From Candidatus Dormiibacterota bacterium (lineage in GTDB: Bacteria > Chloroflexota > Dormibacteria > Dormibacterales > Dormibacteraceae): 64,000 nucleotides of DNA. This document shows, in pieces, positions 8,634 to 52,971 of the stretch. Position 1 is the stretch's first letter; each line of letters opens with the position of its first letter. The stretch covers positions 210-64,209 of the forward strand of contig DAIOCN010000016.1 in the NCBI GenBank assembly GCA_036747295.1. Reading direction: 5' to 3'. Under the pieces are notes generated by a model that was given only the letters and a program-made list of their open reading frames with translations, had not been told where the DNA came from and ran no database searches. Position numbers and translations under genes: made by a program.

Positions 8634-8668
8634 GCTGAGTCCGAGCGCCGAGCGGTAACTGGAGGCGC

Positions 8669-8781
8669 AGTACCCCGGTAATGCGGCATTCCGACCTGTT
8701 CGGAGCCGCATTACCCGGAGAACGCGGCATTCCGACCCTGTTCGGAGCCGCATTACCCGGAGAACGCGGCATTCCCAACCC
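8669..8781. repeat. Tandem 41-42 bp hairpin-forming repeat (2 full copies plus partial flanks) in a convergent intergenic region
   Basis: Copies at 8683-8723 and 8724-8765, with partial copies at 8669-8682 and 8766-8781. Each unit folds as GCGGC-AT-TCCGA / loop CC(C)TGT / TCGGA-GCCGC, followed by ATTACCCGGAGAAC. Confidence 0.8.
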
Positions 8782-8794
8782 GCTACCTCTTGGG

Positions 8795-9766
8795 CTACGT
8801 GCCGGGGGTTGCGAGCATGACCCAGGTGGCGCCGGCATCATCCGTTCGCTGCAGCGAGCCACGAACCGTCGCATAGCCCACCGAGGCGTCCGCGAACGCG
8901 ATCTCTGGCCGTACGGGTGCCGCCTGCGAATAGCTCATCGCCCAGGGCTGCCAGGTGTGGCCGGCATCGTCGGTGGCGACGCCGTCCCGGCCTGGCGACG
9001 AAACCCAGCGCATCGCCGTCACGAGGGCCCCGATCGGGGTTCCGTTCGGCCCGGCTCCGATGTGCGGCCAGGTCGTCCCGCCGTCGAGCGAGCGGAACAC
9101 CTCCGACCCGACGGCCACCAGCAGCTCAGCGCCGGCTACGAGCACCGGTCCCGCGACCGCGGCCTGGCCCGCCGAAGCCGGGACCGGAGCAGAGCGCGAC
9201 CACGTGGCACCGCCGTCCGCCGTCCGGTAGACGACCGGCGCCTGGCCGGCCCGAATGCCTGTCACAAATGCCCGCTGTCCGTTCACGAGGGTGAGCCCGG
9301 TGAGCACCTCTCCCGATTGGAGGTCGCTGAGCGTGCGCGCCACCTGCCAGGACGCTGCGCCGTCGGTCGTCCGCCAGAGCGTGACGGCCGTCGGACCGTC
9401 ATGCGACTCGACCCAGCCAACGGTCTCCGAGATGAAGCTCACGTCCACGATGCTCCCGTCCGGCAGCGACCGCAGCGCCCAGGTCGCGCCACGATCCCTG
9501 GAAAAAAAGAGGTAGCGGGCGTTGGCCAGCGCCCACACCATGTCGTGGGAGGGAGCGCTCACCCGCAGCGATCCTGGCAGCTGCACCAGGGGCGTCCCGG
9601 TGGGCGCCGGAGTCGGGGCCGGCGGCAGGGGCGAACCCGCGATGGGGGATGCCGACGCCGCTCCCGGCGACGCGGTGCGGGGCGACGGTGCCCCGCCGGG
9701 CGTACACCCCAGCAGCATCAACGCCGCTGCCGCTGTCCAGCACCACGTCATCGATGGTCGGCACAT
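8795..9766 (-). CDS. Secreted lipoprotein, BNR/Asp-box (Ycf48-like) beta-propeller
   Basis: Signal peptide with lipobox (MCRPSMTWCWTAAAALMLLGC). Repeated Asp-box-like turns: SRDRGATW, TTDGAASW, TADGGATW, SLDGGTTW, TDDAGHTW, TDDAGATW. Start chosen at ATG 9766 rather than 9832. Confidence 0.75.
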   Translation of the reverse strand: MCRPSMTWCWTAAAALMLLGCTPGGAPSPRTASPGAASASPIAGSPLPPAPTPAPTGTPLVQLPGSLRVSAPSHDMVWALANARYLFFSRDRGATWALRSLPDGSIVDVSFISETVGWVESHDGPTAVTLWRTTDGAASWQVARTLSDLQSGEVLTGLTLVNGQRAFVTGIRAGQAPVVYRTADGGATWSRSAPVPASAGQAAVAGPVLVAGAELLVAVGSEVFRSLDGGTTWPHIGAGPNGTPIGALVTAMRWVSSPGRDGVATDDAGHTWQPWAMSYSQAAPVRPEIAFADASVGYATVRGSLQRTDDAGATWVMLATPGT

Positions 9767-9907
9767 ACTCTGCGCGGCACCCGCCCAGCCATGACCTTCA
9801 ACACTGACGCATTCCAGCGCTTCGAGCAGCAAGCCTGGCAGCGCACGGCGCGAGGCGGGATGGGGGTTAGCGCCCGGCCGAGTCGCTGATCGGCCTGCGG
9901 TTAGGCT

Positions 9908-11986
9908 GTGAGTTTGGCCGCCTTCCGTCGGCCAGTGTTCGGGGGCTGCAGCACGTCTACGCGCGGACCGCTTGAGTTGGAGCGACTACAAAGGGCGATC
10001 GACCTGCCTCGGAGCGTCCGGCTTGTCCTCCTGAGCTTTCTGATGCTCTTCCTGGAGTTGGCGCTCATTCGGTGGACGGGTTCCAAGATCCTCTACCTGT
10101 CCTACTTCTCGAACTTCGTGCTGCTGGCGAGCTTCCTCGGCATCGGCGCCGGCTTCCTCCGCGCCCGCTCGGCGCGCAACCTTTTCCAGCTGGCGCCGGT
10201 GCTGCTGGCGGTCCTGGTCGCGTTCGTCCTCGTCTTCCCGGTCCAGATCGAGCGCTCGGGCAACGAGCTCATCTTTTTCGGCGCCCTCCAACAGAGCCGC
10301 AGCGGGCTTCCGATCTGGATCACGCTGCCGGCCATCTTCGTGGTGGTAGCGGCCGTGATGATGACGGTCGGCGAGGGCGTGGGCCGAGCCTTCGTCGAGT
10401 TCGAGCCGCTGCAGGCCTACCGGCTCGACATCATCGGCAGCATCGCCGGCATCGCCGCGTTCTCGCTGCTCTCGTTCGACGGGGCGCCCCCTGTCGCGTG
10501 GGCCCTGATCGTGGGCGTCCTGATCGTGCTCCTGCTCCTGCCGACAGTCAGGCCCTTCCAGCTCGTTTCAGTGGCCGCCCTGGTGCTCATGCTCGGGATC
10601 GAATCCGTATCGCCGCTGGAATCCTGGTCGCCCTACTACCGAATCACCCTCAGCCCGCAAGCCAGCGGCGCCATCTCCATCTCCGTCAACGGCATCCCGC
10701 ATCAAACGATCGAGACCGTCGAGCAGCGCCGGGCCTCGGTGCCGCTCTACTTCCTGCCCTACTCGCGCCTGGCGGCGCGGCCCGGTGACGTGCTGATCGT
10801 GGGCGCCGGCACCGGTACCGATGTGGCGATCGCACTGGCTCAGGGTGTCCAGCACGTGGACGCGGTCGAGATCGATCCTTCGCTCCACGACATCGGCGTC
10901 AAGCTGCATCCCGACCACCCCTACCAGGACCCACGCGTCACGACCTACATCGACGACGGGCGCGCCTTTCTGCAGCAGACCGACCACACCTACGACCTCA
11001 TCCTCTTCGCCCTGCCCGATTCCTTGACCCTGGTGGCGGGGCAGTCCTCCCTTCGACTCGAGAGCTACCTGTTCACGGTCGAGGCGATGCGGCAGGCGCG
11101 CACGCACCTGAAGCCGGGTGGTGTCTTCAGCGAGTACAACTACTACCGCGAGCAGTGGCTCATCGACCGCCTGGCCGCCACCCTTCAGTCGGTCTACGGC
11201 CACGCGCCGTGCCTGGATTCGACGGGCCGGACCGGGAAGCTGGCGCTCCTGAGCGCAAGCGTTGATCCCGCCTCGATCACCTGCCCTGCGACCTGGGACC
11301 CCGGAACCCGGGTGGTGCCGGCGGCGGCGACGGATGACTACCCGTTCCTCTACCTGCAACAGCGGGGCGTCCCTGGCCTCTACCTGGTCACGCTGGTCCT
11401 GATCGTGCTCGCGGCACTGGCGCTGGTGCGCGTGGCGAGCGGCCCGCTGAGAGGCATGGCAGCCCATGCCGACCTCTTCTTCATGGGCGTCGCCTTCCTG
11501 CTCCTCGAGACGAAGAACGTGGTGCAGTTCGCGCTGTTGTTCGGCACCACCTGGTTCGTCAACGCCCTGGTTTTCACCGGCATCCTGCTGGCCGTGCTGG
11601 CTGCTGTGACTGTGGCGGAGCACCTGCGTCTCAAGAGCGTGTGGCAGCTCTACGGCCTGCTGCTCGTGGCCATCGCCGTGGCCTGGCTGGTGCCACCCGA
11701 GTGGCTCTTGAGGTTGTCGCTGCTCCCGCGTTTCCTCGCGGCCAGCGCCATCGCCTTCGTCCCCATTTTCATCGCCAACCTGGTATTCGCCCAACGATTC
11801 AGGGGCGTCGGCTCCTCGAATGTCGCCTTCGGGGCCAACCTGCTCGGAGCGATGATCGGTGGCGTGCTGGAATACGGCGCCCTGGCGATCGGCTACCGCG
11901 CGCTGCTACCGGTCATCGCCGGTCTCTACATCGTCGCTCTGTTGCTGTGGCTGAGGGCTCAGCCGCAAGCCCGAGTTCAATCCTGA
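9908..11986 (+). CDS. Polytopic membrane protein fused to a spermidine synthase-like (aminopropyltransferase-fold) domain
   Basis: Multiple TM segments on both sides of a class-I methyltransferase-fold core: VLIVGAGTGTDVAIALAQGVQHVDAVEIDPSL...DLILFALPD. Confidence 0.75.
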   Translation: MSLAAFRRPVFGGCSTSTRGPLELERLQRAIDLPRSVRLVLLSFLMLFLELALIRWTGSKILYLSYFSNFVLLASFLGIGAGFLRARSARNLFQLAPVLLAVLVAFVLVFPVQIERSGNELIFFGALQQSRSGLPIWITLPAIFVVVAAVMMTVGEGVGRAFVEFEPLQAYRLDIIGSIAGIAAFSLLSFDGAPPVAWALIVGVLIVLLLLPTVRPFQLVSVAALVLMLGIESVSPLESWSPYYRITLSPQASGAISISVNGIPHQTIETVEQRRASVPLYFLPYSRLAARPGDVLIVGAGTGTDVAIALAQGVQHVDAVEIDPSLHDIGVKLHPDHPYQDPRVTTYIDDGRAFLQQTDHTYDLILFALPDSLTLVAGQSSLRLESYLFTVEAMRQARTHLKPGGVFSEYNYYREQWLIDRLAATLQSVYGHAPCLDSTGRTGKLALLSASVDPASITCPATWDPGTRVVPAAATDDYPFLYLQQRGVPGLYLVTLVLIVLAALALVRVASGPLRGMAAHADLFFMGVAFLLLETKNVVQFALLFGTTWFVNALVFTGILLAVLAAVTVAEHLRLKSVWQLYGLLLVAIAVAWLVPPEWLLRLSLLPRFLAASAIAFVPIFIANLVFAQRFRGVGSSNVAFGANLLGAMIGGVLEYGALAIGYRALLPVIAGLYIVALLLWLRAQPQARVQS

Positions 11987-14792: not shown

Positions 14793-14901
14793 TCGAGGTT
14801 ATCGGGGACCGAAAGCCGGGGTCGCGATTGATCGTCGGCAACGCGATCTCTCAGCCGATTCTCAAGGCCGCTTCAGGCCTGGGCCGCACAGTGCGTCTCA
14901 C

Positions 14902-15429
14902 GTGGTCCCTGGGCTCCTCTCAATCGCAACCCGCGCGGCCGGCCTCGTCAGCGCCGTGGCGCTGATCGCCGGCTGCGGGGCAACCACCACGGCCACCGCC
15001 GGCGCCGGCCCTTCTACAGCCACCTCCCCCCGGACGGTGTGCACGGCGCCGAGCCCGCGACCCTCTGGCGGCGGCGGGTTCCAGAGGCCGGTGGCGAGCG
15101 GAACTGTGACCAGTGTCGGCAGCGGTTCGCTGACGGTGCTGGACCGGACGTCCGGCGGCCCGGTGCAGGTGACCTTCGACTCATCGACAAAGATCCAGAG
15201 CGGAGGCCAGCCTGGCAGCGCATCCGATGTCCAGACCGGGGTCGCGGTCTCCGTGCAGGGCCAGAGGCAGGCCGACGGCAGCGTGCAGGCCACCTCGATC
15301 ACGGTGCGCCCGGCTGGGGCAGGTGCACCTGGGGCCGGCGCACCTGGGGCCGGTGCCTCACCCGGGGCTGGTCCCTCGCCCCGTCCAGGCGGTCGCCGCG
15401 GTTGCCCGAGCCCAGCCACCGCGAACTAG
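14902..15429 (+). CDS. Lipoprotein, DUF5666-like
   Basis: Lipobox ALIAGC. GTVTSVGSGSLTVLD...VQVTFDSSTKIQ...VSVQG pattern. C-terminal GAGAP low-complexity repeat. Confidence 0.6.
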   Translation: MVPGLLSIATRAAGLVSAVALIAGCGATTTATAGAGPSTATSPRTVCTAPSPRPSGGGGFQRPVASGTVTSVGSGSLTVLDRTSGGPVQVTFDSSTKIQSGGQPGSASDVQTGVAVSVQGQRQADGSVQATSITVRPAGAGAPGAGAPGAGASPGAGPSPRPGGRRGCPSPATAN

Positions 15430-15447
15430 GCCGCCCGATCGACAGGT

Positions 15448-15816
15448 AGCGCCGTATCGATGGCGGGACCACGCCGATTCGATCAGCCGCGGACTCTGGC
15501 ATAGCGCTCCGCGGACATAGCCTCCAAACCAGTGGAACTGTGACTTCGAAACCACTGCGGGGCCCGCCGCGACCGCATCGACTCCACCGGCAAGGTCACG
15601 CTTCGCTATCTCAGCCGGCTTCGACATATCCCGGTCGGCGCAGTTCACCGCAACCGCAAGGTCCTGCTTCTAGTAGCTGGCGCCGACGTTAGTGTCGTCA
15701 CCACCGACGGGACACTCATTCGGCACCTCACACTCGACCCGAATCGAAGCTACCAGCCCCTCGGCGGCCGCTGGCCTGTGCACAATGTCCCGCGACGACT
15801 GTCAACGATGTCCTGA
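15448..15816 (+). mobile_element. Degenerate C-terminal remnant of an rve-type (IS481-like) transposase; no start codon and an internal stop
   Basis: My translation of 15544-15816 gives LRNHCGARRDRIDSTGKVTLRYLSRLRHIPVGAVHRNRKVLLLVAGADVSVVTTDGTLIRHLTLDPNRSYQPLGGRWPVHNVPRRLSTMS*. This matches the conserved C-terminal tail of actinobacterial IS481-family transposases. The frame is closed by TGA just upstream, and no DDE core is present. Confidence 0.6.
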
Positions 15817-15826
15817 GACATGAGAG

Positions 15827-18094
15827 TCAGGAGGGCCAGTAGGAATCGAACCCATTGATCAGCTGGCGGGCAATTTCCCCAACCGGCAGCTGACTCGTCG
15901 CCGATCCGGCAGTTGCCCGGGGATCGGCAAGAGGGGGCTGAGCTCCTTGACTCCCGGCGCTCGGCGCGACTGTCGCTGGGTGGCGGGGCCCTGAGCCGCT
16001 GGGCGCGGAGTGAGCCGCGGAACCGAGCGGCGCTGAATTTTTCGGTGGCGCCTGCGCCGCGGGACTGGGCGTCGCCGGACTCACCGCTGGAGCCTGCGCC
16101 ACGGGACTGGGCGTCGCCGGACTCACCGCTGGAGCCTGCGCCACGGGACTGCGCAGGCTTCCGATGACCACCCGGCCGCCCTGGTCCACGGCGACGCAAA
16201 GGCTGCTGCTGGGACAGGACACGCCGGTCAGGAAGTTGGAGCCGTCCACATTCGTCAGCGTCCAGTCCGCCGCCCCCCCGGTGGGGTTGCTGGAGGTGAG
16301 GACGTTGCCGCCCTGATCCACGGCGACGCAGAAGCTGTTGCTGGGACAGGACACGCCTGACAGAGCATTGGAGACATCCACGTTGGTCAGCGTCCAGGCC
16401 CCCGGCCCCCCGGTGGGATTGCTGGAGGTGACCACGTTGCCGCCGCCGTCCACGGCGACGCAGAGGCTGCTGCTGGAACAGGACACGCCGGTCATGAAGT
16501 TGGCCCCGACCACGTTGGTCACCGCCCAGGCCCCAGCCCCCCCGGTGGGGTTGCTTGAGGTCACCACGTTGCCGCTGCCGTCCACGGCGACGCAGAGGCC
16601 GCTGCTGGGGCAGGACACGCCGAACAGACCATTGGAGCCGACTATGTGGGCCACCGTCCAGGCCCCCGCCCCCCCGGTGGGGTTGGTGGAGGTGATCACG
16701 TTGCCGCTGCCGTCGACGGCGACGCAGAGGGCGCTGCTGGGACAGGACACTGCGTTCAGGACGTTGGAGCCGTCGACGCTGGCCACCGTCCACGCCGCCG
16801 CGCCCCCGGTGGGGTTGCTGGAGGTGACCACGTTGCCGAGGTTCTTCGTGCCCACGGCGACGCAGAGGCCGCTGCTGGGACAGGACACTCCGAACAGGGA
16901 ATCGGCCCCGGCCACGTTGCTCACCGTCCAGGCCGCCGACCCCCCAGTGGGGTCGCTGGAGGTGATCACGTTGTCGCTCTGGTCCACCGCGACACAGAGG
17001 CCGCTGCTCGGACAGGACACTGCGTTCAGGACGTTGGAGCCGTCGACGTTGGTCACCGTCCAGGCGGACGCGCCGCCCGTGGGGTTGCTGGAGGTGACCA
17101 CGTTGCCGAAATTGTCAACGGCGACGCAGAGCGCGCTGCTAGGACAGGACACGCCCTCCAGGATGTTGCCGCCGTCCACCGCGGCTGCGGTCCAGGCCGC
17201 CGCCCCCCCGGTGGGATTGGTCGAGGTGAACACGTGGGCGGGGCCGTCCACGGCGACGCAGAGGCTGGTGCTCGGACAGGACACCCCGGACAGGACCTGG
17301 GAGCCCACGTTGGTCACCGTCCAGCCCGCCGCCCCCCCGGTGAGGTTTGTGGCGGTGACCACGTTGCCGAGCTCGTCCACCGCGACGCAGAGGCCGCTGC
17401 TGGGGCAGGACACACCCAACAGGAAGTTGGCGCCGTCCACATTGGCCACCGTCCAGGCCGCCGCTCCCCCGGTGGGGTTCGTGGAGGTGACCACGTTGCC
17501 GCTGCTGTCCACTGCGACGCACAGGCTGCTGCTGGGACAAGAGACGCCGAACAGTCCGTTCGAACCGTCCACGTGGGCCGCGGTCCAGGCCGCATTCCCC
17601 CCGGTGGGGTTCGTGGAGGTGATCACGAAACCGCCTTCGGCCACGGCGACGCAGAGGCCGGCGCTGGGACAGGACACGCCGTGCAGGGAGCCGGGCGCGG
17701 CGTTTTGGGCCACCGTCCAGGCCGCCGCCCCCCCGGTGGGGTTGGTGGACGTCACCACGTTGGCCTTCCCGTCCACGGCGACGCAGAGGCCGCTGGTGGG
17801 ACAGGACACGCCTGACATGAAGTTGGGACCGTCCACGTGGGTCACGGTCCAGGCCGCCGCCCCCCCGGTGGGGTTTGTGGAGGTGACCACGTTCCCGTTC
17901 TGGTCCACGGCGACGCAGAGGCCGCTGCTGGGACAGGAAACGCCTGAGATGAAGTTGGCGAAGAACGGCGGCTGGTGGTCGACGAGCACCGGTGCCGACC
18001 ATATCAACGGAGAGCCGGCTGCCAGGGCCACCGGGCTCACGAGTGCGAACCCTGCCGCCAACAGGGCGGCGCAGAGCACCACACACCGCCGCAT
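15827..18094 (-). CDS. Secreted tandem-repeat protein: 14 x ~43-aa Cys-x5-Cys repeats (propeller-like) plus a P/A/S-rich tail; family unassigned
   Basis: Signal peptide MRRCVVLCAALLAAGFALVSPVALAAG after ATG 18094, with AAGGAAG upstream. Fourteen repeats with consensus GVSCPSsgLCVAVDxxGNVVTStNPTGGaaAWTvtnVDGsNxL. The other long ORFs across this region are off-frame shadows of the repeat. Confidence 0.8.
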   Translation of the reverse strand: MRRCVVLCAALLAAGFALVSPVALAAGSPLIWSAPVLVDHQPPFFANFISGVSCPSSGLCVAVDQNGNVVTSTNPTGGAAAWTVTHVDGPNFMSGVSCPTSGLCVAVDGKANVVTSTNPTGGAAAWTVAQNAAPGSLHGVSCPSAGLCVAVAEGGFVITSTNPTGGNAAWTAAHVDGSNGLFGVSCPSSSLCVAVDSSGNVVTSTNPTGGAAAWTVANVDGANFLLGVSCPSSGLCVAVDELGNVVTATNLTGGAAGWTVTNVGSQVLSGVSCPSTSLCVAVDGPAHVFTSTNPTGGAAAWTAAAVDGGNILEGVSCPSSALCVAVDNFGNVVTSSNPTGGASAWTVTNVDGSNVLNAVSCPSSGLCVAVDQSDNVITSSDPTGGSAAWTVSNVAGADSLFGVSCPSSGLCVAVGTKNLGNVVTSSNPTGGAAAWTVASVDGSNVLNAVSCPSSALCVAVDGSGNVITSTNPTGGAGAWTVAHIVGSNGLFGVSCPSSGLCVAVDGSGNVVTSSNPTGGAGAWAVTNVVGANFMTGVSCSSSSLCVAVDGGGNVVTSSNPTGGPGAWTLTNVDVSNALSGVSCPSNSFCVAVDQGGNVLTSSNPTGGAADWTLTNVDGSNFLTGVSCPSSSLCVAVDQGGRVVIGSLRSPVAQAPAVSPATPSPVAQAPAVSPATPSPAAQAPPKNSAPLGSAAHSAPSGSGPRHPATVAPSAGSQGAQPPLADPRATAGSATSQLPVGEIARQLINGFDSYWPS
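16047..16157 (-). repeat. Perfect 42-bp direct duplication (2 exact copies plus partial flanks) encoding SPVAQAPAVSPATP
   Basis: 16061-16102 and 16103-16144 are identical (gggactgggcgtcgccggactcaccgctggagcctgcgccac). Confidence 0.9.
16157..17944 (-). repeat. Coding tandem repeat, 14 copies, period about 129 bp (diverged copies)
   Basis: Periodicity is visible in all six reading frames of the ORF track. Boundaries were derived from residues 80-675 of the 784-aa ORF. Confidence 0.85.
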
Positions 18095-18304
18095 CACCGG
18101 TTCATCTTCCTTGGCTCTCCCTTTGACGACGGATGGCCGCACCGGTGTGCCGCGCGCCAGTGTACGTGGTATCGGCCGCACCCTGTGGTGAAGCCTCGCC
18201 GGCGCGCCGCTGACAGGCGAAGCCGGTCTGCCGCGGGGTCGTCTGCCTCGACAGCCTCGCGCGTCTTCTTAATGGACGCTGAGGCCAATCCGTCCAAGGG
18301 CATG

Positions 18305-18335
18305 AAAAAGGGCGGTTCCGCATTCGAAACCGCCC
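18305..18335 (-). terminator. Rho-independent terminator of the 18366..18668 gene
   Basis: On the minus strand: GGGCGGTT / 10-nt loop / AACCGCCC followed by TTTTT. Stems at 18310-18317 and 18328-18335, U-tract at 18305-18309. Confidence 0.75.
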
Positions 18336-18365: not shown

Positions 18366-18668
18366 CTATTCGTCCTCGATCTGGTTGAACATCAGGCTGT
18401 CCTGGATCTCGTACAGGGCGTCCATCGCCTCGGTGACCGACGACAGCCTCGGCTGCTGGGCGACTACCTCGGAGCCGGCGATCAGCTCGTCCAGGGCACT
18501 GGCGAGCGGACGCGGCATCACGTTCTGGTCGGCCAGGTTCAGCATCTCCAGCTCGTTCAGAAGCTGGTCGATGTAGCGCATCTTGTTGCGCCGGGCGTAC
18601 TTGGATTCGCGCTCCACCCGGCCCTGCGCTACGACTGTGTCGATTGCTACGCAGGCTTCCTCGATCAT
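18366..18668 (-). CDS. Hypothetical 100-aa acidic protein
   Basis: Clean GC3 signal, GGAG 8 nt before the ATG, a near-consensus promoter upstream and an intrinsic terminator downstream. No motif I can name. Confidence 0.65.
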   Translation of the reverse strand: MIEEACVAIDTVVAQGRVERESKYARRNKMRYIDQLLNELEMLNLADQNVMPRPLASALDELIAGSEVVAQQPRLSSVTEAMDALYEIQDSLMFNQIEDE

Positions 18669-51813: not shown

Positions 51814-52971
51814 GTGGCGCTCCTGATCGGACCTGTCGTCGCACTCATCGGGGTTCTCGCCGCGTATTTCGTGCTCAGGACCCGGGCCCGGTCGCGGGCC
51901 TCGCTCTATTCGTCGCGCCGCACCGAGCTGCAGCGCGTGGCCGCCGCGCGGAGGGCGCACGCCCTCGATCCGCACGCCCCGAAAGGGAAGGGAAAGCCCG
52001 CAGCCGCTCCGGCGGCCTACCCGCCGCTGGCACCCGCCCCGGCTCCCGCTCCCGCTTCCGCCCCCGAGCCTCGGGCCGGCGACGCCTGGGACTCCTCGCC
52101 CACCCGACCCGCCGAGACGGTGCTGCCGCCCGCCGCGGCTGCGGCCGCCCCGCCCCAGCAGTTCGAGTCGTCGGCCCCGGTCGAGCCGCCCCCGGCTCCG
52201 GAACCGCCCGCTCCGGAACCGGTCTTCGTGGAACCGCCCGCTCCCGAATCAGTCTCCGTGGAGCCGCCCGCTCCCGAACCGGTCTTCGTCGAGCCGCCGC
52301 CACCGCCGCCACCGGCTCCGGAACCTATGGCCGCGGAACCGCCGGCCCCCGAGCCGATCCCGGAACCGCAGCCTCCCGCGGCCGCCGAACCGGTCGCCGC
52401 TCCCCCGCCGGCGCCCCCTCCTCCCCCGCCGATGGAGAGCGACTGGTCTGTCAGCATGGCGCCCAGCCCGCCGCCGCCGCCGCCCGCCCCGGCGCCGGCC
52501 CCGGAACCTGCCCCCGTGGCCCAATACCTCCCCCCCGGGGAGACGCTGGCCCCTCCTGAAGGCGCCTGGGAGTCGGCTTCGCCGGCACCGTCCGAGGCTG
52601 CCGTGGACGCCACCCCGGTGGTCCCGGAGGCCGCGGCCGCCGCCTCGCCGAGCTGGGAGGTGGCGCCGGACTCGTCGCACGACGCCAAGACGTCGCTCCA
52701 GGCTCAGCCGATCCCGGACGCCACCGACGCCGCGGCGACGCCTGCCGCCTGGAGCATCATCGGCGAGGGCGGCGCCGAGATCGCGCCCGGCGACCAACCC
52801 AGCTTCAGGGCCTCCAAGCGGGGCCGCAAGGAGAAGAGCTGGGACTCGGGGATCTACGGAGAGGAGCCCAAGGAGCCCGTCGCCCAGACCGTCCTCGGCT
52901 ACATAGGCCTGGTCGCCGCCCTGGTCGTGGTCCTGCTGGGCGTGATCCTGATGATCAGCGCGACGCGTTAG
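51814..52971 (+). CDS. Proline-rich bitopic membrane protein (TM helices at both termini)
   Basis: N-terminal TM LLIGPVVALIGVLAAYFVL and C-terminal TM VLGYIGLVAALVVVLLGVILMI, with about 300 aa of P/A/E-rich low complexity between them. Confidence 0.6.
   Translation: MALLIGPVVALIGVLAAYFVLRTRARSRASLYSSRRTELQRVAAARRAHALDPHAPKGKGKPAAAPAAYPPLAPAPAPAPASAPEPRAGDAWDSSPTRPAETVLPPAAAAAAPPQQFESSAPVEPPPAPEPPAPEPVFVEPPAPESVSVEPPAPEPVFVEPPPPPPPAPEPMAAEPPAPEPIPEPQPPAAAEPVAAPPPAPPPPPPMESDWSVSMAPSPPPPPPAPAPAPEPAPVAQYLPPGETLAPPEGAWESASPAPSEAAVDATPVVPEAAAAASPSWEVAPDSSHDAKTSLQAQPIPDATDAAATPAAWSIIGEGGAEIAPGDQPSFRASKRGRKEKSWDSGIYGEEPKEPVAQTVLGYIGLVAALVVVLLGVILMISATR
52201..52300 (+). repeat. 30-bp coding tandem repeat (about 3.3 copies) encoding EPPAPEPVFV
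   Basis: Units at 52201-52230, 52231-52260 and 52261-52290, plus a partial copy. Confidence 0.8.

Follow-up and report, generated by a model that had tools for sequence, protein, structure and literature searches.

The locus and its gene product

The stretch of DNA analysed here, hereafter the window, comprises 64,000 nucleotides (nt) of contig DAIOCN010000016.1 (positions 210 to 64,209) from a Candidatus Dormiibacterota bacterium, and carries on its (-) strand, at positions 15827-18094, a gene for a repetitive protein that we refer to as the propeller gene and that is the subject of this paper. The coding sequence is complete, with 755 amino acids (aa) and a stop codon, and was assigned from the list of open reading frames (ORFs), from homologs and from a G+C content at third codon positions (GC3) of 0.87. 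It runs from an ATG at 18094 to a stop codon at 15827-15829, and the frame is open upstream of the ATG as far as a GTG at 18181. JGI gene callers report the identical 755-aa product on three independent metagenome contigs that contain this locus. A possible, weakly supported ribosome-binding site, AAGGAAG (18106-18112, (-)), was read from the sequence 11 nt 5' of the ATG. An intrinsic terminator with an 11-bp stem, 8 GC pairs and a following T-run (18310-18335, (-)) closes the upstream 100-aa gene and implies separate transcription of the propeller gene, which appears to be a stand-alone transcription unit.

The product begins with a putative Sec-type signal peptide (aa 1-26, 18017-18094, (-)), which had been proposed in the first-pass annotation and which, read as MRRCVVLCAALLAAGFALVSPVALA|AG, has the n/h/c layout and the A-x-A site of such leaders; residues 2-15 are helical in the AlphaFold2 (AF2) model, with a low predicted local distance difference test score (pLDDT). 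Relatives carry Sec leaders or, in some cases, lipoprotein lipoboxes instead, and this conservation agrees with the extracytoplasmic location that had been suggested. The leader is followed by a conserved N-terminal segment (aa 27-50, SPLIWSAPVLVDHQPPFFANFIS, 17945-18016, (-)) that matches the family consensus PLxWxAPxxxDxQPP and contains, at aa 27-37, the conserved PLxWxAP strand, which reads PLIWSAP in this protein.

Next come 13 full blade repeats (aa 51-623, 16226-17944, (-)), delimited by Tandem Repeats Finder (TRF), repeat parsing, a hidden Markov model (HMM) of the blade and AF2, with the consensus GVSCPSSxLCVAVDxxGNVVTSTNPTGGAAAWTVxNVDGxNxLx. TRF finds a 132-nt period in 13.5 copies with 78% matches at 16175-17958, and the full repeats are 44 aa long in eleven cases, 43 aa in one and 46 aa in one. 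A truncated 14th repeat (aa 624-646, GVSCPSSSLCVAVDQGGRVVIGS, 16157-16225, (-)) contains strands A-C, placed by AF2 at residues 622-629, 632-637 and 641-646, and both cysteines; it aligns to HMM positions 1-21 and has no NPTGG..W turn. All 28 repeat cysteines are arranged as C-x5-C, and two more cysteines lie in the leader. The 28 cysteines had been counted in the same way in the first-pass annotation, where the array was described as 14 tandem 43-aa repeats that each keep the NPTGG..W turn. The array itself is real; its period, however, is 44 aa, it consists of 13 full repeats and one truncated repeat, and the turn deviates in repeat 5 (NLTGG) and repeat 8 (SDPTGG) and is missing from the 14th.

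The remainder of the protein is a disordered tail rich in proline, alanine and serine (aa 647-755, 15830-16156, (-)), with pLDDT values of 31-45 and, in the C-terminal 110 aa, 24 A, 21 P and 17 S. It ends in a short low-confidence helix (aa 740-749, AF2) and includes a 42-nt tandem repeat (16046-16151, (-); TRF, 2.5 copies, 96% identical) that encodes SPVAQAPAVSPATP units. Direct reading of the tail sequence shows no LPXTG motif and no hydrophobic stretch or anchor, which bears out the earlier description of a P/A/S-rich end that lacks a sortase signal and a transmembrane anchor. The tail does not resemble the C-terminal domains that relatives carry, and a decayed C-terminal domain was rejected since a tblastn search of relatives' tails against 14800-16300 gave nothing past the last blade.

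An ORF on the opposite strand (16338-18191, (+), 617 aa) spans the repeat array and is itself repetitive (…TATQRPLLGQDTP…), and the product described above could in principle be a chance reading of a high-GC DNA repeat, with the antisense frame as the true gene. The length of the antisense ORF and its equally high GC3 (0.89, beside 0.87 in the propeller frame) speak for such an explanation. The propeller frame, however, is conserved across thousands of homologs, yields confident AF2 folds and is under purifying selection at 32 conserved blade positions, where the ratio of nonsynonymous to synonymous divergence (dN/dS) is 0.25. The Pfam match at the locus is confined to this frame; the antisense ORF has no significant Pfam match (best E 0.016), and the alternative frames of the locus have neither a profile match nor homolog support. 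We consider this explanation effectively refuted, and the antisense ORF is a shadow ORF of the kind that repeat genes of high GC content typically have.

Fold and family relationships

A full-length AF2 model, built on an alignment of 118 sequences, has a mean pLDDT of 86, values above 95 in the repeats and a predicted template modelling score (pTM) of 0.77. The first seven repeats modelled alone (aa 27-357) reach a pLDDT of 94 and a pTM of 0.90, and in both models each repeat forms four strands and a three-residue helix just ahead of the invariant Trp. In Foldseek searches of the Protein Data Bank (PDB) the best matches of the full model are tandem 7+7 propellers (entries 2ymu, 4nsx and 1nr0 among them; the proteins include WRAP of Nostoc, Utp21, Aip1, Gemin5 and UTP proteins of the small-subunit (SSU) processome), in alignments of 640-720 columns with template modelling (TM) scores for the query (TMq) of up to 0.61, a value that should be out of reach for a single propeller. 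The seven-repeat model matches seven-bladed propellers only, at TM scores of 0.65-0.79; Ycf48 is its top match (E 1e-13, TM 0.66-0.74) and WD40 domains follow, with target-based scores (TMt) of up to 0.79.

The N-terminal segment behaves differently in the two models: aa 31-40 have a pLDDT of 92 in the full model, whereas in the seven-repeat model the segment has values of 59-71 and forms no strand. Because it is ordered only in the full model, and because the last repeat lacks a fourth strand, we infer a Velcro closure, in which the final blade is made complete by the 'W' strand from the N-terminus. The 14 blades are thus 13 full repeats plus the three-strand partial repeat at the C-terminus joined by the N-terminal strand. 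In relatives, blade counts obtained with an HMM built from the blades of this protein peak at 7, 13-14, 20-21 and 27-28. The two AF2 models, the Foldseek matches and these counts support an arrangement of the 14 blades as two closed seven-bladed beta-propellers, and on the same grounds the first-pass proposal of one blade per repeat and 2 x 7 blades holds. The protein of the window is the minimal form, with two propellers and a disordered spacer.

In the profile scan that the first-pass annotation had suggested as a check, Tachylectin (PF14517) is the only Pfam family above threshold (38.8 bits against a gathering score of 29.8, E 1.2e-9), and NCBIfam gives no match. The alignment is best over aa 420-616, where it takes in positions 6-220 of the 230 in the profile and thus nearly all of the five-blade model. 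Tachylectin is also the commonest propeller match in the precomputed Pfam lists of 120 relatives, where it occurs in a minority. The family had been left unassigned; that now has to be qualified by the Tachylectin score, and it stands to the extent that no dedicated model, name or function exists. WD40 profiles do not match at E<=1 and are absent from the Pfam lists of the 120 relatives, and the same holds for BNR, BNR_2, PSII_BNR and sialidase profiles. The last result tells against the idea that the S-x-[ND]-P-x-G-G-x3-W spacing of the repeats, which has a helix inside it, is a stretched Asp-box, as had been proposed; the sole hint in its favour is the rank of Ycf48 as top structural match of the seven-repeat half. 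We rejected the Asp-box, and the C-D loop fits instead a loop of the tachylectin/VCBS type (PMC8023676).

In blades of that type a G and a W in the C-D loop are conserved, the W anchoring a short helix, and a GW motif in the D-A' loop links the tachylectin-like families, which Pereira & Lupas described among secreted actinobacterial propellers (PMC8023676). Highly repetitive tachylectin-like propellers, with a median internal blade identity above 60%, have been found only in Actinobacteria and Cnidaria (PMC9218822). The protein described here passes this threshold, with a mean blade identity of 69% (range 55-82%) against 60%, and fits that description. It resembles tachylectin-like propellers in its PF14517 score above gathering, in its predicted secretion, in its four-strand blades and in a C-D loop with G, a short helix and W in every full blade. 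With tachylectin-2 it shares the predicted Velcro closure by a permuted strand; the internal repeat identity of tachylectin-2 is 54% (PMC4735018), compared with the 69% noted above. Unlike tachylectin-2 it has an invariant C-x5-C pair in each blade, and it has no detectable sequence similarity to the PDB entry of that lectin.

The other systems that it recalls are alike mainly in fold. WRAP of Nostoc punctiforme (Npun_R6612, 2ymu) likewise has 14 near-identical blades arranged as two seven-bladed propellers (PMC9218822) and is, with the double WD40 propellers Aip1, Utp21 and Gemin5, the best full-length structural match. The likeness to the double WD40 propellers is one of fold only, with no WD40 profile match and an identity of <=15%. 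WRAP belongs to a STAND ATPase, is located in the cytoplasm and arose by very recent amplification (PMC9218822), whereas our protein would be exported, has cysteine pairs and has blades at a synonymous divergence (dS) of about 0.4. Ycf48/HCF136, the photosystem II assembly factor, resembles each half in its single closed seven-bladed ring and is also extracytoplasmic (lumenal); it differs in that identity is 12-13%, no PSII_BNR or BNR profile matches our protein at E<=1, cysteine pairs are absent, its blades are not highly repetitive and its biological setting is another. The PLL-family lectins of Photorhabdus (PLL3, PMC6943638) are seven-bladed multivalent bacterial lectins and offer a functional analogy; they are single propellers, no sequence relationship to them was detected here, and their motifs were not compared in detail.

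The family is very large. A word-indexed search scored 5911 homologs among 8000 candidates, and an exhaustive search of 1.84 billion representatives at 50% identity returned 10,293 proteins at E<=1e-3, 2,274 of them at E<=1e-30; none of the relatives listed has an informative name. When one genome was kept per species, the 75 best loci all came from metagenome-assembled genomes (MAGs), assigned to Solirubrobacterales/Thermoleophilia, Acidimicrobiales, Actinomycetes, Mycobacteriales, Candidatus Dormibacterota and Chloroflexota. Several genomes contain multiple copies of the family, some of them in tandem, and one Dormibacterota MAG (L013, 6480-12035) has a 1852-aa ORF with 28 blades (4 x 7). 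The protein thus belongs to a huge, unnamed and unstudied propeller family whose nearest known blades are tachylectin-like.

Blade positions, cysteines and the age of the array

Conservation of blade positions was scored over 835 to 2833 blades. Cys4 and Cys10 are both kept in 2827 of 2833 blades (99.8%), and Trp32, Pro25, Ser3, Ser22 and Gly17 are also near-invariant, with Gly27 and Gly28 at about 80-90%; within the C-D loop NPTGGAAAW the values over 835 blades are 79% for G27, 86% for G28 and 100% for W32. The conserved positions are typical core and turn residues. Positions 7-8, 15-16, 29-30, 33-36 and 40-44 are variable, and this variability is located in the B-C and D-A' loops and in the outer strand D. 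In the usual propeller topology one face would bear the cysteine hairpin (A-B) together with the NPTGG-helix-W loop (C-D), and the other face the variable B-C and D-A' loops. At the 12 variable positions dN/dS is 1.9, a value obtained for sites chosen post hoc and under a strong GC3 bias that depresses dS, and for these reasons we do not read it as positive selection.

The near-absolute conservation of the cysteines and the export signal fit structural disulfides, and Actinobacteria oxidise exported proteins; a structural disulfide in each blade is therefore likely as a prediction from sequence. Its connectivity is not fixed by the strand register that DSSP assigns to the AF2 model, in which position 6 of the repeat is the last of strand A and position 9 the first of strand B. 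Losses among the 2833 blades number six of a single cysteine and none of both; with both residues almost invariant, these counts say nothing about pairing.

At the DNA level the blades are on average 78% identical, with a synonymous divergence of about 0.40, and because of this divergence the array is neither an assembly artefact nor a very recent amplification, in agreement with the first-pass view of an old, diverged array. Positional orthology of blades was rejected: blades of the same index in this protein and its relatives are 0.58 identical and blades of other indices 0.57, and the best match falls at the same index in 14% of cases. In an Actinomycetes MAG (L004, 6363-13946) two adjacent 14-blade paralogues, the one pair compared, likewise show no positional correspondence. 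The loss of correspondence may reflect saturation at the few positions that are free to vary, or else concerted evolution or re-amplification.

These patterns also bear on whether the protein could be a propeller enzyme, such as a glycosidase, a lyase or a cofactor-dependent dehydrogenase, with its active site in the central channel and its cysteines perhaps binding a metal or cofactor. Many propellers are enzymes, two relatives have weak PQQ_2 matches, and from topology the 14 cysteines of each propeller would lie close together, near that end of the A-B hairpins which faces the axis. No enzyme family is matched in Pfam or NCBIfam, however, and the blades are near-identical and have no unique or blade-specific catalytic residues, so that no single blade carries a unique active site; the positions that are conserved are those of core and turns, and the family is fused to binding and stalk domains rather than to cofactor or electron-transfer partners. 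Catalysis by this protein is accordingly a very improbable explanation.

Relatives, proposed role and genomic setting

Downstream of the propellers, relatives carry Big_3_5, TIG, InlB-B-like, PASTA, Ig, PKD, He_PIG, cadherin-like and ricin modules, and in two giant relatives (P0192 and P0217) a 14-blade propeller with cysteine pairs stands directly before RHS repeats; P0217 also has an RCC1 propeller and DUF6531 upstream, as in polymorphic toxins. Neither the Pfam lists of the 120 top-ranking relatives nor the seven giant relatives that were scanned contain a catalytic domain. Among long relatives the closest is P0003; it is one of a series of very large secreted proteins (L079/L080, 1-19579), the others being a GH25 muramidase, a cadherin/Big_9 protein, an NHL/Vgb-lyase-like propeller, an uncharacterised 1160-aa protein and a PQQ_2 propeller.

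A setting of this kind would suit a structural component of the envelope, that is, an S-layer-like array or wall coat in which stapled propellers are the building blocks and the tail is a wall-spanning spacer. The presence of several paralogues per genome, sometimes in tandem, the lipoprotein variants and PASTA fusions, the P/A/S-rich tail and the island of very large secreted proteins around P0003 are all compatible with such a coat. The protein described here, on the other hand, has no anchoring or self-assembly domain, SLH domain or sortase signal, and occurrence inside RHS toxins is ill suited to a pure coat role. We hold a structural role to be improbable.

The leaders and lipoboxes, the fusion partners, the lack of a catalytic domain and the lack of residues unique to one blade point instead to a recognition module, and on balance we think, with slightly better than even confidence, that the gene encodes an exported, non-catalytic, multivalent binding protein, possibly lectin-like. 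The analysis shows the gene, its repeats, the fold with its 7+7 partition, and the size and fusions of the family; from these we infer the route of export, the disulfides, binding in preference to catalysis and a glycan as ligand. The lectin-like role is our leading specific guess, made from sequence on account of the marginal Tachylectin relationship and the 14 equivalent sites. After Sec export and cleavage of the leader, the 14 blades of 44 aa would fold into two seven-bladed propellers, the N-terminal 'W' strand completing the last C-terminal blade. The invariant cysteine pair around the A-B hairpin would most likely form a disulfide and so staple the inner part of the propeller, the extracytoplasmic space being oxidising. 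The 14 near-identical sets of loops could then provide multivalent binding, as in tandem-repeat propeller lectins such as tachylectin-2, which binds GlcNAc/GalNAc between its blades, and the likeliest ligands would be repetitive ones, the glycans of cell walls or soil polymers. In many paralogues the module is carried by Ig-like stalks or lipid anchors or is built into RHS toxins; in the protein of the window the propellers are followed solely by the disordered spacer, and for this reason it is probably released or loosely wall-associated.

The main rival to a lectin-like role is protein binding, in which the propellers would serve as a protein- or peptide-binding scaffold or adhesin module whose faces recognise proteins, for example those of target cells or partners in the envelope, as in WD40 domains and Ycf48. 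The top Foldseek matches of the half-protein are Ycf48, in a structure with a bound D1 peptide, and WD40 domains; the module recurs in the RHS polymorphic-toxin architectures of P0192 and P0217 and in Ig/cadherin/PKD adhesin-like arrays; and the variable residues fall in the B-C and D-A' loops, which by general topology form the partner face of WD40 propellers. Yet the likeness of seven-bladed folds is generic, with TM scores of about 0.7 to many families at <=15% identity, the sole sequence-profile link is to a lectin family, and an array of 14 near-identical sites is better matched to a repetitive ligand than to one protein partner. Protein binding seems to us rather unlikely.

Several observations weigh against the lectin-like proposal itself. 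The Tachylectin match is marginal, being faint or absent in most relatives and faint in P0003, and searches of PDB sequences with the protein and with family and blade profiles found no relative and did not reach 1TL2. The protein has 14 blades of 44 aa (7+7) where tachylectin-2 has 5 blades of 47 aa, and its D-A' segment, V-D-G-x-N-x-L-x, contains no Trp and hence no GW motif. The best structural match of the half-protein, Ycf48, is a protein-binding assembly factor and not a lectin, and neither sequence nor model names the ligand or the sugar-binding residues in the propeller. As for the staple, the two-residue turn between strands A and B suggests that Cys4 and Cys10 would be set diagonally, on opposite faces of the sheet; given that register an intrablade bond would need a bulge at Cys4-Pro5, and Cys10 of one blade could pair instead with Cys4 of the next. 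Finally, there is no conserved neighbourhood, since the neighbours found in the window are absent from the 75 related loci except for generic ABC ATPases.

A broader reading of the binding role, which we regard as doubtful, would make the C-x5-C blade of 44 aa the signature of a distinct and very large extracellular seven-bladed family that acts as a diversifiable recognition cassette. In it each blade of a cysteine-stapled, invariant scaffold would have about 12 positions in loops and rim that evolve fast. Scrambling or homogenisation of blades within genes would have erased positional orthology, and the unit would be inserted into adhesins, lipoproteins and RHS toxins, whose target specificity it would determine. 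The scope of this reading is uncultured soil Terrabacteria, with more than 10,000 clusters at 50% identity (Actinomycetota, Dormibacterota, Chloroflexota).

Downstream of the propeller gene lie a DUF5666 protein on the opposite strand and then an ABC ATPase and an FtsX/MacB permease. The DUF5666 assignment is that of a + strand ORF (14902-15429; Pfam E 2e-10); the JGI callers place instead a 134-aa gene with no Pfam match on the - strand (14898-15302), and for this locus (14898-15429) the + strand reading seems the more likely. On the upstream side the 100-aa ORF, which has a strong terminator of its own, is accompanied by genes for an ArsR-type regulator and a YjeF_N protein. The 100-aa ORF (18366-18668, (-)) is acidic, looks helical, has no Pfam family and is preceded by a sigma-70-like promoter match (18738-18711); it was not found beside any of the 75 related loci. 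Clustering of the ORFs that flank relatives gave no recurrent partner family.

In the first-pass annotation the gene was placed between a transposase remnant and a lower-GC island and was taken to be accessory or acquired. Pfam scans of the flanking ORFs and frames contain no transposase match, no mobile-element signal was found around the gene, and the GC3 of the small upstream gene (0.89) is native-like beside the 0.91-0.95 of the ABC, FtsX, ArsR and YjeF neighbours; a foreign island was accordingly rejected. 'Accessory' remains a fair term, since the family is rich in paralogues and lacks synteny, whereas 'acquired' is left with no support.

Three further features of the window were recorded. 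A 402-aa ORF without a Pfam match (8681-9889, (+)) has a 42-nt tandem repeat (8661-8775, 2.8 copies, 90% matches) at its start. A 692-aa ORF at 9908-11986 has a spermine/spermidine-synthase-like domain and is situated where the GC content is lower (0.66) and the AT skew strongly negative. The kilobase with the highest GC content in the window (0.77), in which the GC skew is strongly negative, contains a 30-nt tandem repeat in 3.3 copies (52200-52298).

If our reading is true, the protein represents, in compact form, an uncharacterised family that is among the larger ones of exported proteins in uncultured Actinomycetota, Dormibacterota and Chloroflexota of soil and permafrost. The finding by itself opens no long-standing question. 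As a natural, cysteine-stapled and highly symmetric 7+7 propeller the protein would be an added system for the origin of propellers by blade amplification, and a first structure together with a ligand would annotate thousands of 'hypothetical' proteins and would reveal the binding targets of recognition modules in some RHS toxins and giant adhesins.

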